DNA from: Escherichia coli
Lineage (GTDB): Bacteria; Pseudomonadota; Gammaproteobacteria; Enterobacterales; Enterobacteriaceae
NCBI RefSeq assembly: GCF_044647545.1
Contig: NZ_CP172818.1
Length of the DNA: 64,000 nt
Direction: 5' to 3' (one strand)
Shown here: positions 4,117 to 56,573 of the stretch, piece after piece
How the letters are laid out: each line of letters begins with the position of its first letter
Numbering within the stretch: position 1 is the stretch's first letter
Notes under the pieces: generated by a model
What the model saw: only the letters and a program-made list of their open reading frames with translations
Database searches by the model: none
Told to the model about the DNA's origin: nothing
Position numbers and translations under genes: made by a program

Positions 4117-4485
4117 ATAAAAAAAGGGAGCACTGTATTCACAGTGCTCCCGGTTCGTTTCGCAGCATTCCAGCTACTTTTGTTGCTCCCTGCTCATCCT
4201 TGACAACTTTTCCTCTGGCCTTGCGGCCAATCGTTCATCCTGAACTATTGCTTCCTGCTCACACCACCCCGATGTGATACTTCATCCTGAAGTGTCCCTG
4301 GCCTTCCTGACCCACCGAATCATCCTGACCGGTTCTCATTCTCCATCCTGGAGGTGTCCTTTAACGCGTCCTGCGTCATCCTCTTCGCTTCATCCAGAAG
4401 CCTTTCCCTGAAACACCATCCTGGTGTGTCCTTCAGAAGTGTCATCATCCTGATGTTCACTTCGTTGTCTGACTCCCTGTCGACG
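4117..4485 (-). ncRNA. csrB: CsrB sRNA (CsrA-sequestering RNA)
   Basis: About 369 nt whose reverse complement contains many CAGGAUG / AGGA motifs (seen as repeated 'catcctg' on the + strand) and ends in a GC-rich hairpin plus U-tail (rc of 4119-4151); located between yqcC and syd as in K-12. Confidence 0.9.
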
Positions 4486-14243: not shown

Positions 14244-15560
14244 ATGGGAAACACATCAATACAAACGCAGAGTTACCGTGCGGTAGATAAAGATGCAGGG
14301 CAAAGCAGAAGTTACATTATTCCATTTGCACTGCTGTGCTCACTGTTTTTTCTTTGGGCGGTAGCCAATAACCTTAACGACATTTTATTGCCTCAATTCC
14401 AGCAGGCTTTTACGCTGACAAATTTCCAGGCTGGCCTGATCCAATCGGCCTTTTACTTTGGTTATTTCATTATCCCAATCCCTGCCGGGATATTGATGAA
14501 AAAACTCAGTTATAAAGCAGGGATTATTACCGGATTGTTTTTATATGCCTTCGGCGCTGCATTATTCTGGCCCGCCGCAGAAATAATGAACTACACATTG
14601 TTTTTAGTTGGCCTATTTATTATTGCAGCCGGATTAGGTTGTCTGGAAACTGCCGCAAACCCTTTTGTTACGGTATTAGGGCCGGAAAGCAGTGGTCACT
14701 TCCGCTTAAATCTTGCGCAAACATTTAACTCATTTGGCGCAATTATCGCGGTTGTCTTTGGGCAAAGTCTTATTTTGTCTAACGTGCCACATCAATCGCA
14801 AGACGTTCTCGATAAAATGTCTCCAGAGCAATTGAGTGCGTATAAACACAGCCTGGTATTATCGGTACAGACACCTTATATGATCATCGTGGCTATCGTG
14901 TTACTGGTCGCCCTGCTGATCATGCTGACGAAATTCCCGGCATTGCAGAGTGATAATCACAGTGACGCCAAACAAGGATCGTTCTCCGCATCGCTTTCTC
15001 GCCTGGCGCGTATTCGCCACTGGCGCTGGGCAGTATTAGCGCAATTCTGCTACGTCGGCGCGCAAACGGCCTGCTGGAGCTATTTGATTCGCTACGCTGT
15101 AGAAGAAATTCCAGGTATGACCGCAGGCTTTGCCGCTAACTATTTAACCGGAACCATGGTGTGCTTCTTTATTGGTCGTTTCACCGGTACCTGGCTCATC
15201 AGTCGCTTCGCACCACACAAAGTCCTGGCAGCCTACGCATTAATCGCTATGGCACTGTGCCTGATCTCAGCCTTCGCTGGCGGTCATGTGGGCTTAATAG
15301 CCCTGACTTTATGCAGCGCCTTTATGTCGATTCAGTACCCAACAATCTTCTCGCTGGGCATTAAGAATCTCGGCCAGGACACCAAATACGGTTCGTCCTT
15401 CATCGTTATGACCATTATTGGCGGCGGTATTGTCACTCCGGTCATGGGTTTTGTCAGTGACGCTGCGGGCAACATCCCCACAGCTGAACTGATCCCCGCA
15501 CTCTGCTTCGCAGTCATCTTTATCTTTGCCCGTTTCCGTTCTCAAACGGCAACTAACTGA
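14244..15560 (+). CDS. fucP: L-fucose:H+ symporter
   Basis: 438-aa MFS ORF recognised as FucP. Confidence 0.92.
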   Translation: MGNTSIQTQSYRAVDKDAGQSRSYIIPFALLCSLFFLWAVANNLNDILLPQFQQAFTLTNFQAGLIQSAFYFGYFIIPIPAGILMKKLSYKAGIITGLFLYAFGAALFWPAAEIMNYTLFLVGLFIIAAGLGCLETAANPFVTVLGPESSGHFRLNLAQTFNSFGAIIAVVFGQSLILSNVPHQSQDVLDKMSPEQLSAYKHSLVLSVQTPYMIIVAIVLLVALLIMLTKFPALQSDNHSDAKQGSFSASLSRLARIRHWRWAVLAQFCYVGAQTACWSYLIRYAVEEIPGMTAGFAANYLTGTMVCFFIGRFTGTWLISRFAPHKVLAAYALIAMALCLISAFAGGHVGLIALTLCSAFMSIQYPTIFSLGIKNLGQDTKYGSSFIVMTIIGGGIVTPVMGFVSDAAGNIPTAELIPALCFAVIFIFARFRSQTATN

Positions 15561-15592
15561 ACATATTTTCCGAATAAAGTGAGGAATCTGTA

Positions 15593-17368
15593 ATGAAAAA
15601 AATCAGCTTACCGAAAATTGGTATCCGCCCGGTTATTGACGGTCGTCGCATGGGTGTTCGTGAGTCGCTTGAAGAACAAACAATGAATATGGCGAAAGCC
15701 ACGGCCGCACTGCTGACCGAGAAACTGCGCCATGCCTGTGGAGCTGCCGTCGAGTGTGTCATTTCCGATACCTGTATCGCGGGTATGGCTGAAGCCGCTG
15801 CTTGCGAAGAAAAATTCAGCAGTCAGAATGTAGGCCTCACCATTACGGTAACCCCTTGCTGGTGCTATGGCAGTGAAACCATCGACATGGATCCAACCCG
15901 CCCGAAAGCCATTTGGGGCTTTAACGGCACCGAACGTCCCGGCGCTGTTTACCTGGCAGCGGCTCTGGCAGCTCACAGCCAGAAAGGCATCCCGGCATTC
16001 TCCATTTACGGTCATGACGTTCAGGATGCCGATGACACATCGATTCCTGCTGATGTTGAAGAAAAACTGCTGCGCTTTGCCCGCGCCGGTTTGGCCGTCG
16101 CCAGCATGAAAGGTAAAAGCTATCTGTCGCTGGGCGGCGTTTCGATGGGTATCGCCGGTTCTATTGTTGATCACAACTTCTTTGAATCCTGGCTGGGAAT
16201 GAAAGTCCAGGCGGTGGATATGACCGAACTGCGTCGCCGTATCGATCAGAAGATTTACGACGAAGCCGAACTGGAAATGGCGCTGGCCTGGGCTGATAAA
16301 AACTTCCGCTATGGCGAAGATGAAAATAACAAACAGTATCAACGCAATGCCGAGCAAAGCCGCGCAGTTCTGCGCGAAAGTTTACTGATGGCAATGTGTA
16401 TCCGCGACATGATGCAAGGCAACAGCAAACTGGCCGATATTGGTCGCGTGGAAGAATCACTTGGCTACAACGCCATCGCTGCGGGCTTCCAGGGACAACG
16501 CCACTGGACCGATCAATATCCCAATGGTGACACCGCCGAAGCGCTCCTCAACAGTTCATTTGACTGGAATGGCGTGCGCGAACCCTTTGTCGTGGCGACC
16601 GAAAACGACAGTCTTAACGGCGTGGCAATGCTAATGGGTCACCAACTCACCGGCACCGCTCAGGTATTTGCCGATGTGCGTACCTACTGGTCACCAGAAG
16701 CAATTGAGCGTGTAACGGGGCATAAACTCGATGGACTGGCAGAACACGGCATCATCCATTTGATCAACTCCGGTTCTGCTGCGCTGGACGGTTCCTGTAA
16801 ACAACGCGACAGCGAAGGTAACCCGACGATGAAGCCACACTGGGAAATCTCTCAGCAAGAGGCTGACGCTTGCCTCGCCGCTACCGAATGGTGCCCGGCG
16901 ATCCACGAATACTTCCGTGGCGGCGGTTACTCTTCCCGCTTCCTTACCGAAGGCGGCGTCCCGTTCACCATGACTCGTGTCAACATCATCAAAGGCCTGG
17001 GACCGGTACTGCAAATCGCGGAAGGCTGGAGCGTGGAATTGCCGAAGGATGTGCATGACATCCTCAACAAACGCACCAACTCAACCTGGCCAACCACCTG
17101 GTTTGCACCGCGCCTCACCGGTAAAGGGCCGTTTACGGATGTGTACTCGGTAATGGCGAACTGGGGCGCTAACCACGGGGTTCTGACCATCGGCCACGTT
17201 GGCGCAGACTTTATCACTCTTGCCTCCATGCTGCGTATCCCGGTATGTATGCACAACGTTGAAGAGACCAAAGTGTATCGTCCTTCTGCCTGGGCCGCGC
17301 ACGGCATGGATATTGAAGGCCAGGATTACCGCGCTTGCCAGAACTACGGCCCGTTGTACAAGCGTTAA
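15593..17368 (+). CDS. fucI: L-fucose isomerase
   Basis: 591-aa ORF recognised as FucI. Confidence 0.92.
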
Positions 17369-17476
17369 TACATGACTCCCTGATGTGATGCCCGGTCGCT
17401 CCGGCTACCGGGCCTGAACAAGCAAGAGTGGTTAGCCGGATAAGCAATGTTATCCGGCTATATTGCAGGAGCGATT

Positions 17477-18895
17477 ATGAAACAAGAAGTTATCCTGGTA
17501 CTCGACTGTGGCGCGACCAATGTCAGGGCCATCGCGGTTAATCGGCAGGGAAAAATTGTTGCCCGCGCCTCAACGCCTAATGCCAGCGATATCGCGATGG
17601 AAAACAACACCTGGCACCAGTGGTCTTTAGACGCCATTTTGCAACGCTTTGCTGATTGCTGTCGGCAAATCAATAGTGAACTGACTGATTGCCACATCCG
17701 CGGTATCGCCGTCACCACCTTTGGTGTGGATGGCGCTCTGGTAGATAAGCAAGGCAATCTGCTCTATCCGATCATTAGCTGGAAATGTCCGCGAACAGCA
17801 GCGGTAATGGACAATATTGAACGGTTGATCTCCGCACAGCAGTTGCAGGCTATTTCTGGCGTCGGAGCCTTTAGTTTCAATACGTTATATAAGTTGGTGT
17901 GGTTGAAAGAAAATCATCCACAACTGCTGGAACGCGCGCACGCCTGGCTCTTTATTTCGTCGCTGATTAACCACCGTTTAACCGGCGAATTCACTACTGA
18001 TATTACGATGGCCGGAACCAGCCAGATGCTGGATATCCAGCAACGCGATTTCAGTCCGCAAATTTTACAAGCCACCGGTATTCCACGCCGACTCTTCCCT
18101 CGTCTGGTGGAAGCGGGTGAACAGATTGGTACGCTACAGAACAGCGCCGCAGCAATGCTCGGCTTATCCGTTGGCATACCGGTGATTTCCGCAGGTCACG
18201 ATACCCAGTTCGCTCTTTTTGGCGCTGGTGCCGAACAAAATGAACCCGTGCTCTCTTCCGGTACATGGGAAATTTTAATGGTCCGCAGCGCCCAGGTTGA
18301 TACTTCGCTGTTAAGTCAGTACGCCGGTTCCACCTGCGAACTGGATAGCCAGGCAGGGTTGTATAACCCAGGTATGCAATGGCTGGCATCCGGCGTGCTG
18401 GAATGGGTGAGAAAACTGTTCTGGACGGCTGAAACTCCCTGGCAAATGTTGATTGAAGAAGCTCGTCTGATCGCACCTGGCGCGGATGGTGTGAAAATGC
18501 AGTGTGATTTATTGTCGTGTCAGAACGCTGGCTGGCAAGGAGTGACGCTTAATACCACGCGGGGGCATTTCTATCGCGCGGCGCTGGAAGGGTTAACTGC
18601 GCAATTACAGCGCAATCTACAGATGCTGGAAAAAATCGGGCACTTTAAAGCCTCTGAATTATTGTTAGTCGGCGGAGGAAGTCGCAACACATTGTGGAAT
18701 CAGATTAAAGCCAATATGCTTGATATTCCGGTAAAAGTTCTCGACGACGCCGAAACGACCGTCGCAGGAGCTGCGCTGTTCGGTTGGTATGGCGTAGGGG
18801 AATTTAACAGCCCGGAAGAAGCCCGCGCGCAGATTCATTATCAGTACCGTTATTTCTACCCGCAAACTGAACCTGAATTTATAGAGGAAGTGTGA
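17477..18895 (+). CDS. fucK: L-fuculokinase
   Basis: FGGY-kinase ORF. ORF-track start is 17447 (482 aa), but the ATG at 17477 is preceded by AGGAG at the right spacing and the 17447 ATG lies inside a perfect hairpin, so the 472-aa form is preferred. Confidence 0.88.
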
Positions 18896-18896
18896 A

Positions 18897-19319
18897 ATGC
18901 TGAAAACAATTTCGCCGTTAATTTCTCCCGAACTATTGAAAGTGCTGGCAGAGATGGGGCATGGAGATGAAATTATTTTTTCCGATGCTCACTTTCCCGC
19001 CCATTCGATGGGACCGCAGGTGATCCGCGCTGATGGCCTGTTGGTGAGTGACTTGCTCCAGGCGATTATCCCGTTATTTGAACTGGACAGTTATGCACCG
19101 CCGCTGGTGATGATGGCGGCGGTAGAAGGTGACACTCTCGATCCTGAAGTAGAACGACGTTATCGTAATGCGCTTTCACTACAAGCCCCCTGTCCTGACA
19201 TCATCCGCATCAATCGTTTTGCGTTTTATGAACGGGCGCAAAAAGCCTTTGCGATCGTTATCACAGGCGAACGAGCGAAGTACGGGAATATTCTTTTAAA
19301 AAAAGGGGTAACACCGTAA
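18897..19319 (+). CDS. fucU: L-fucose mutarotase
   Basis: 140-aa ORF recognised as FucU (RbsD/FucU family). Confidence 0.9.
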
Positions 19320-19376
19320 TCTCATACCGGTACGCCCGCATGACGCGGGCGGTTATCGAATGATGGGGTGAAAAAT

Positions 19377-20108
19377 ATGAAAGCGGCACGCCAGCAAGCG
19401 ATAGTCGACCTGCTGCTGAACCATACCAGCCTGACCACGGAAGCTCTCTCTGAACAGCTAAAGGTCAGTAAAGAAACCATTCGTCGCGATCTCAATGAAT
19501 TACAGACGCAGGGTAAAATTCTGCGCAATCATGGACGCGCTAAATATATCCACCGTCAAAATCAAGACAGTGGCGATCCCTTTCACATCCGGTTGAAAAG
19601 CCATTATGCGCATAAAGCAGATATCGCGCGCGAGGCGCTCGCGTGGATTGAAGAAGGGATGGTAATAGCATTAGACGCCAGTTCAACCTGCTGGTATCTG
19701 GCACGCCAGTTGCCTGACATCAACATCCAGGTCTTCACCAATAGCCATCCGATTTGCCATGAACTCGGTAAACGTGAACGCATTCAACTGATCAGTTCCG
19801 GCGGCACACTTGAGCGCAAATATGGTTGTTACGTCAATCCCTCGCTGATTTCCCAGCTTAAATCGCTGGAAATCGATCTGTTTATTTTTTCTTGTGAAGG
19901 GATCGATAGCAGCGGCGCACTGTGGGACTCCAATGCCATCAACGCTGATTACAAATCAATGCTATTAAAACGCGCCGCACAATCGTTGTTATTGATTGAT
20001 AAAAGTAAATTTAATCGTTCAGGGGAAGCCCGCATCGGGCATCTGGATGAGGTCACGCACATTATTTCTGATGAGCGCCAGGTTGCAACTTCTTTGGTAA
20101 CAGCCTGA
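19377..20108 (+). CDS. fucR: DeoR-family activator of the fuc regulon
   Basis: 243-aa ORF (MKAARQQAIVDLL...) with N-terminal HTH, recognised as FucR; ORF track starts 3 codons earlier. Confidence 0.9.
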   Translation: MKAARQQAIVDLLLNHTSLTTEALSEQLKVSKETIRRDLNELQTQGKILRNHGRAKYIHRQNQDSGDPFHIRLKSHYAHKADIAREALAWIEEGMVIALDASSTCWYLARQLPDINIQVFTNSHPICHELGKRERIQLISSGGTLERKYGCYVNPSLISQLKSLEIDLFIFSCEGIDSSGALWDSNAINADYKSMLLKRAAQSLLLIDKSKFNRSGEARIGHLDEVTHIISDERQVATSLVTA

Positions 20109-56542: not shown

Positions 56543-56573
56543 GATTAACGCCGGTTAAAACCGGCGTTAAATA

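Follow-up and report, generated by a model that had tools for sequence, protein, structure and literature searches.

The perfect palindrome in the spacer between fucI and fucK of Escherichia coli, hereafter called hairpin 2, is a relic of a REP pair and not an active or mobilisable REP. The ATG in its loop arose incidentally from the loop of the REP (GCGCAATGCC in Citrobacter) and is not the start codon of fucK, which lies downstream at position 17477. This identity of the element and this start codon are jointly very probable. Combined with a role of the folded spacer as a barrier to exonucleases, a part which is tentative when taken by itself, they give the best explanation overall, with a probability of about 0.7. 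The DNA analysed, a stretch of 64,000 nucleotides (64 kb, the window), includes the fucPIKUR operon of E. coli, with the gene order fucP-fucI-fucK-fucU-fucR in the RefSeq/PGAP annotation of matching DNA. Many E. coli chromosomes match the 901 bases around the site with 100 % identity, and of 5426 complete genomes 5424 contain them; the spacer of K-12 MG1655 differs from that in the window by one base. The fucI-fucK spacer has a length of 108 nt and is non-coding. The features of the region are listed in Table 1.

Table 1. Features of the fucI-fucK region, with positions given in the 64-kb window
Feature	Position	Strand	Description	Basis
fucI (L-fucose isomerase) CDS	15593..17368	+	stop codon TAA at 17366-17368	ORF list, RefSeq annotation of identical DNA
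Hairpin 1	17390..17413	+	GCCCGGT-CGCTCCGGCT-ACCGGGC, then CCTGAAC at 17413-17419	inverted repeat, fold, alignments
GTTAG, mutated remnant of the REP GTAG(G) foot	17431..17435	+		aligned under GTAGG of 11 orthologues
Hairpin 2	17433..17460	+	perfect 11-bp stem, relic y-type REP	inverted repeat, RNA fold, homology to GTAGGCCGGATAAGCGCAATGCCATCCGGC
Upstream in-frame ATG	17447..17449	+	start of the mechanical 482-aa ORF, in the loop of hairpin 2, not the functional start	ORF list, comparative, TetRP
Shine-Dalgarno AGGAG	17467..17471	+	5 nt before ATG 17477	GGAG invariant in orthologue alignment
fucK (L-fuculokinase) CDS	17477..18895	+	472 aa, start ATG at 17477-17479	RefSeq K-12, PGAP, TIGR02628, tblastn

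The arms of hairpin 2, TAGCCGGATAA (17433-17443) and TTATCCGGCTA (17450-17460), which were identified with an inverted-repeat finder, are 11 nt long and 100 % complementary, and they enclose a 6-nt loop, GCAATG (17444-17449). The perfect stem of 10 bp (17434-17459) given in the preliminary description is real and is one pair longer than claimed. The candidate upstream ATG of fucK was also correctly placed within the hairpin, of which it forms the last three loop bases. Read from 5' to 3', the local order is GGT, TAGCCGGATAA, GCAATG, TTATCCGGCTA, TATTGC, AGGAG, CGATT and ATG AAA. Folded alone as RNA, hairpin 2 had a dG of -17.5 kcal/mol and a z-score of -6.2, none of 200 shuffled sequences being equally stable, and the whole fucI-fucK spacer (135-nt region folded) had a z-score of -3.5. 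Of perfect hairpins with 11 bp or more in the stem and 3-10 nt in the loop, the window contains only three distinct examples, whereas Markov-simulated sequence gave a mean of 0.18 entries, and hairpin 2 is therefore beyond chance. The 24-nt palindrome of hairpin 2, searched for in the 64-kb window with up to 3 mismatches, matched only itself. The other two perfect stems of at least 11 bp were found at 4126-4151 (GGGAGCACTGT-ATTC-ACAGTGCTCCC) and at 56545-56570 (TTAACGCCGGT-TAAA-ACCGGCGTTAA); the former, which by its offset to K-12 lies near the csrB/yqcC boundary, is probably a terminator. Hairpin 1, with a dG of -18.2 kcal/mol, begins 22 nt past the stop codon of fucI.

The ancestry of both hairpins was apparent from orthologous spacers. 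Two canonical opposed REPs, in the layout ...GCCCGGTGGCGCAAGCTTACCGGGCCTAC - linker - GTAGGCCGGATAAGCGC(N)GCGCCATCCGGC..., occupy the spacer in Citrobacter, Klebsiella, Salmonella, Raoultella planticola and a 'Serratia' assembly, and in MAFFT alignments the E. coli spacer matched these REP-bearing spacers column for column. GCCCGGT, TACCGGG, GGAG (columns G100, G101, A102 and G103) and ATG were invariant in the spacer alignment, and CCGG-T-G and ATCCG-C nearly invariant. The sequence GTAGGCCGGATAAGCGCAATGCCATCCGGC of Citrobacter sp. NCU1/R56 aligned with GTTAGCCGGATAA--GCAATGTTATCCGGC of E. coli and hairpin 1 was placed under GCCCGGTGGCGCAAGCTTACCGGGCCTAC, as a degenerate equivalent of the inverted REP ...TACCGGGCCTAC present in Citrobacter and Klebsiella. 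The two E. coli hairpins, both of them degenerate copies, have the relative orientation of a REP pair with a linker of approximately 19 nt, and are aligned to the REP pairs of the other genera. The same order of inverted REP, linker and REP is present in the BIME between tcdA and mltA of K-12, and GTAGGCCGGATAAG recurs at the K-12 intergenic sites barA-gudD, tcdA-mltA and lspA-fkpB. Judged from these alignments, the spacer holds a worn-down REP pair in a BIME-like arrangement (inverted REP, linker and, as hairpin 2, a y-type REP), and hairpins 1 and 2 together are a BIME-like relic. The canonical BIME of K-12 tcdA-mltA itself (z1 REP, linker, y REP; approximately 163 nt, L049:30858-31020) is missing from the strain of the window, where the corresponding site is at ~25857/25858; it is flanked by an imperfect direct repeat (TCAGAATTAAAAAGGGCGAGGTTATCCCTCACCCT / TCAATAATCAGGATGTGAGGTTACCCCTCACCCT) and represents a presence/absence polymorphism.

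Compared with the aligned REP, GTAG has become GTTA in E. coli, the upper part of the stem-loop is 2 nt shorter, and a change of CC to TT closes the characteristic AA bulge, giving hairpin 2 two extra base pairs. In the partner, hairpin 1, CCTGAAC is found where the REP has CCTAC. An intact GTAGG or CCTAC has been kept in 24 of about 40 non-Escherichia spacers. The energies of the two hairpins (-17.5 and -18.2 kcal/mol) compare with -14.9 to -19.7 kcal/mol for canonical REPs. No second site of the REP type of hairpin 1 (TACCGGGCCTAC) was found in the orthologous loci searched. We take its ancestor type (GCCCGGTGGCGC...TACCGGGCCTAC) to be repetitive in the genomes of Klebsiella and Citrobacter.

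REPs of the E. coli type are defined as palindromes of 20-50 nt with a 5' GTAG and an AA-GC bulge, of which K-12 has about 600 copies (PMC8266576). Hairpin 2 is a palindrome of 28 nt and is intergenic, and its GC-rich stem has the y REP core GCCGGATAAG...ATCCGGC, in common with the extragenic REPs and BIMEs of E. coli (y, z1 and z2 REPs, associated with TnpA_REP/RAYT). In form only, both copies being degenerate, its pairing with an opposed hairpin over a short linker also resembles the layout of BIMEs such as that of K-12 tcdA-mltA. Unlike REPs, it measures only 24 nt from GCCGG to CCGGC, compared with 26-31 nt, and shares with canonical REPs only the 10-nt core GCCGGATAAG; GTTAG (17431-35) stands in place of GTAG, GGATAA pairs with TTATCC in a perfect stem where canonical orthologues retain the bulge, and the exact 32-mer occurred at a median of one place per genome in 4910 genomes. 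Any mutation of GTAG abolishes the activity of the E. coli TnpA_REP (RAYT) (PMC8266576). The designation 'REP-like' used in the preliminary description thus holds as a statement of ancestry, by positional homology to the REPs of sister genera, and fails under the strict definition, since GTAG and the bulge are lacking and the element is single-copy. Hairpin 2 is an ordinary degenerate REP, of which no earlier description as such was found; the literature on fucK and REPs and the RepRanger supplements contained no mention of it. The K-12 RefSeq record has no repeat_region features in the 79 kb examined, although canonical REPs lie there, and the missing REP annotation at fucI-fucK is for that reason uninformative. 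A scan with Rfam 15 covariance models of positions 15000-20000 on both strands (E <= 10) gave no match.

The mechanical ORF list predicts that fucK extends from 17447 to 18895, with an ATG start and 482 amino acids. RefSeq K-12 (NP_417283.2, 1419 nt) and PGAP both begin the gene at the ATG equivalent to 17477. From U00096.2 to U00096.3 of K-12 the annotated start shifted downstream by 30 nt, the left end of fucK changing from 2935460 in the 2006 annotation to 2935490 in that of 2014, in 2006 coordinates (PMC4909307, Table S3). In the tetracycline ribosome profiling (TetRP) of Nakahigashi et al. (PMC4909307), fucK was assigned to the class '3. 2014', with reads at the 2014 (short) start only, so that the ribosome-profiling check of fucK initiation proposed earlier has a published answer, the TetRP signal being confined to the short start. 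The canonical AGGAG expected before ATG 17477 is present, separated from it by 5 nt.

Comparison of protein families led to the same start. The NCBIfam model TIGR02628 (L-fuculokinase) matched over its full length with 844.6 bits (curated cut-off, 470.9). In the 482-aa form its position 1 corresponds to residue 14 and position 1 of Pfam FGGY_N to residue 15, so that the extension of 10 amino acids lies outside the family. The alignment with the only solved FucK, that of S. pneumoniae (PDB 4c23), starts at residue 13 of the same form, and no structure of E. coli FucK showing the native N-terminus was found in the PDB. In tblastn, 43 orthologous loci from 40-odd species of Enterobacteriaceae matched from residue 1 of the short FucK, all with GGAG 7-12 nt upstream of the short-form ATG. 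Apart from three Citrobacter, the in-frame ATG at -30 was limited to genomes resembling that of E. coli, and E. albertii has ATA instead. Many species have in-frame stops or other spacer lengths in the region of the extension, and the 10 codons are unconserved. No start codon is present 10 codons inside the short form, as judged by inspection of the sequence. In the table of Hon-yaku, a negative sign is presumed to denote a shorter protein, a convention inferred from the rows of lon (-43) and guaB (+23). Hon-yaku (2007) gave the short fucK site a probability of 1.000, compared with 0.410 for the long site of the EcoGene set; fucK was its largest 'error', with a site 10 codons shorter, and homologues were argued to show that the short site is correct (PMC1805508). 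EcoGene and GenBank later adopted the short start, in the EcoGene-driven re-annotation of 2014. The shorter FucK of 472 amino acids favoured in the preliminary description is upheld by RefSeq/PGAP, TetRP, the family models and the orthologues, and is an already accepted, experimentally supported start. The overlap of the hairpin with the upstream ATG is weak evidence for the choice of start; the comparative and ribosome-profiling evidence is decisive.

That both starts are used, giving FucK isoforms of 482 and 472 amino acids with the hairpin gating the upstream ATG or access to the ribosome binding site, is very unlikely. The EcoGene-derived set that listed the long start in 2007 was described as N-terminally verified, i.e. 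as consisting of N-terminally sequenced proteins, and the authors of Hon-yaku placed fucK among their 'multi-TIS candidates' (PMC1805508). In the literature, no primary protein-sequencing evidence for a long FucK could be traced. Hairpin 2 does end only 6 nt before the Shine-Dalgarno sequence, in line with such gating, but the TetRP signal was seen at the short start only (PMC4909307), the extension is unconserved, with the ATG absent in E. albertii, and the sole upstream triplet resembling a Shine-Dalgarno sequence (GGA, 17438-17440) is inside the stem. Codons 5-8 of fucK (TTATCCTGGTA, 17490-17500) resemble the 3' arm TTATCCGGCTA, so that the 5' arm could potentially pair with them at 9 of 11 positions (82 % complementary), and CAGGA of the Shine-Dalgarno sequence could pair with UCCUG at 17493-97. 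As a regulatory switch the pairing of the Shine-Dalgarno sequence with codons 5-8 was rejected, since the predicted fold was no better than that of shuffled sequences (z = -0.73), and it is probably due to chance.

The exact 32-mer of hairpin 2 was present in 4910 of 5426 E. coli genomes. The Escherichia variants retrieved all differed in the loop and none in the stem. G17444A is shared by strain WP4-W18-ESBL-09 and Escherichia sp. MOD1-EC7003, and E. albertii has GCCATA for GCAATG, the three substitutions in or near hairpin 2 all falling in the 6-nt loop. Since all of the spacer is 97-100 % identical throughout the species (5424 genomes), the invariance of the stem is only a weak sign of selection. 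Hairpin 2 is missing from E. whittamii, which has a normal Shine-Dalgarno sequence and ATG, and hairpin 1 from C. sedlakii, showing that neither hairpin is indispensable. Between genera the spacer varies in sequence type, with REPs of the z, y or GCCCGG type or a GC hairpin of unrelated sequence that has a T-run behind it, and folds with z <= -2 were obtained for 42 of 44 orthologous spacers, whatever their type. In Enterobacter sp. 10-1 (L024:2458-2488), a hairpin and TTTTTTTGTT match the terminator consensus directly before the Shine-Dalgarno sequence of fucK. This comparison suggests that a structured element between fucI and fucK, possibly one acting in attenuation, may be a recurrent feature. 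In several genera (L024, and similarly L019, L025, L028, L040 and L043) the spacer is only approximately 52 nt long, with the unrelated GC hairpin and T-run. In E. coli 13KWH46 (L055, NZ_CP019250.1 1825455-1825932) an IS3-family element is located inside hairpin 1 and the spacer matches only from TCCGGCTACCGGG onwards; fucI is not adjacent at that locus, and the operon is probably split.

The preliminary description suggested a role as mRNA stabiliser, which is plausible. The role proposed here for the stem-loops is that of an exonuclease barrier, at somewhat less than even odds. The spacer would be transcribed within the polycistronic fuc mRNA, and its two U-less stem-loops of approximately -18 kcal/mol may act as passive barriers to the 3' to 5' exonucleases PNPase and RNase II. 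If the mRNA were cleaved, or transcription ended by Rho-type termination, further downstream, the upstream fucP-fucI segment would be protected, and expression would thereby be biased to fucPI over fucKUR. The stem would at the same time bury the only triplet resembling a Shine-Dalgarno sequence before the spurious ATG (GGA, 17438-17440). U-less stem-loops shield E. coli transcripts from PNPase and RNase II (PMC6061677), and literature on REPs as exonuclease barriers is cited in PMC8266576. The fuc hairpins resemble such protective stem-loops in energy and in the lack of a U-tract, and the block of PNPase and RNase II proposed here would be a further likeness; unlike the U-less stem-loops at mapped transcript ends, hairpin 2 lies between two genes of one operon. 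Hairpin 2 was also considered as a target of RNase III and rejected, the 11-bp stem being too short.

Nearly as likely as the exonuclease barrier is a neutral fossil, i.e. a decaying REP remnant without effect on fuc expression, which would persist only because the recent divergence of Escherichia has left too little time for its erosion. A fossil would fit the 97-100 % identity of the spacer in 5424 genomes, which makes the conservation of the stem uninformative, the loss of hairpin 2 in E. whittamii with the Shine-Dalgarno sequence and ATG still normal, the turnover of z-type, y-type and GCCCGG-type REPs at the site, and the strain with an IS3-family insertion in hairpin 1. It fits less well with a relic that gained pairing, by the closing of the AA bulge through CC to TT, and did not lose it, with a dG equal to that of intact REPs, with three substitutions in or near hairpin 2 that all fall within the loop, or with a strong hairpin in nearly every orthologous spacer, even across sequence families. 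BIME-associated attenuation was reportedly observed by Espeli et al. in 2001, and the hairpins could be imagined to terminate transcription partly, intrinsically or by a Rho/BIME-associated route, between fucI and fucK, lowering fucKUR. A GC hairpin with a T-run, in agreement with the terminator consensus, is indeed present in the same spacer of Enterobacter, Raoultella, Kluyvera and relatives. In E. coli, hairpin 2 is like intrinsic terminators in being a GC-rich hairpin and unlike them in being followed by AUAUUGCAGGAG, neither hairpin has a U-tract after it, and a scan for intrinsic terminators over 17000-18000 gave 0 sites. Strong termination would, moreover, abolish the kinase and the activator, as the spacer has no promoter-like site from which fucK, fucU and fucR, located beyond it, could be transcribed. 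An attenuator is consequently improbable in E. coli.

A sigma-70 promoter scan of 17000-18000 found no site, and an internal fucK promoter is unsupported. The same lack of a promoter-like site nearby speaks against the 28-bp palindrome acting as DNA, as the operator of a dimeric regulator or a site for gyrase, IHF or Pol I. Its perfect dyad symmetry, and the reported binding of gyrase, IHF or Pol I to BIMEs (PMC2817692, PMC8266576), would be consistent with such a site, but orthologues swap in unrelated hairpins, so that structure is kept and not sequence, and the conserved REP and BIME motifs have been lost in the relic. Such a site is very unlikely.

A further reading is exaptation, in which the REP, having lost transposase recognition (GTAG to GTTA) in the Escherichia lineage, would have been re-tightened to a perfect 11-bp stem under selection for an RNA hairpin that sets the ratio of FucP and FucI to FucK, FucU and FucR; it might at times gate initiation at the AUG in its loop as well, yielding a minor FucK isoform of 482 amino acids. 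This is a speculative proposal with a low probability; such an isoform, if made, would account for the old listing of the long form in EcoGene.

For annotation, the consequence is that gene callers choosing the longest ORF would add 10 false residues to FucK, the long start being an artefact of an ATG in a repeat-derived hairpin. The importance beyond annotation is small. The spacer is also an example of a REP pair that decays in place yet retains or even improves its folding as RNA. Stabilisation of mRNA within operons by REPs is a mechanism known since the 1980s, and if hairpin 2 were shown to tune fucPI relative to fucKUR, it would be one more case of it.
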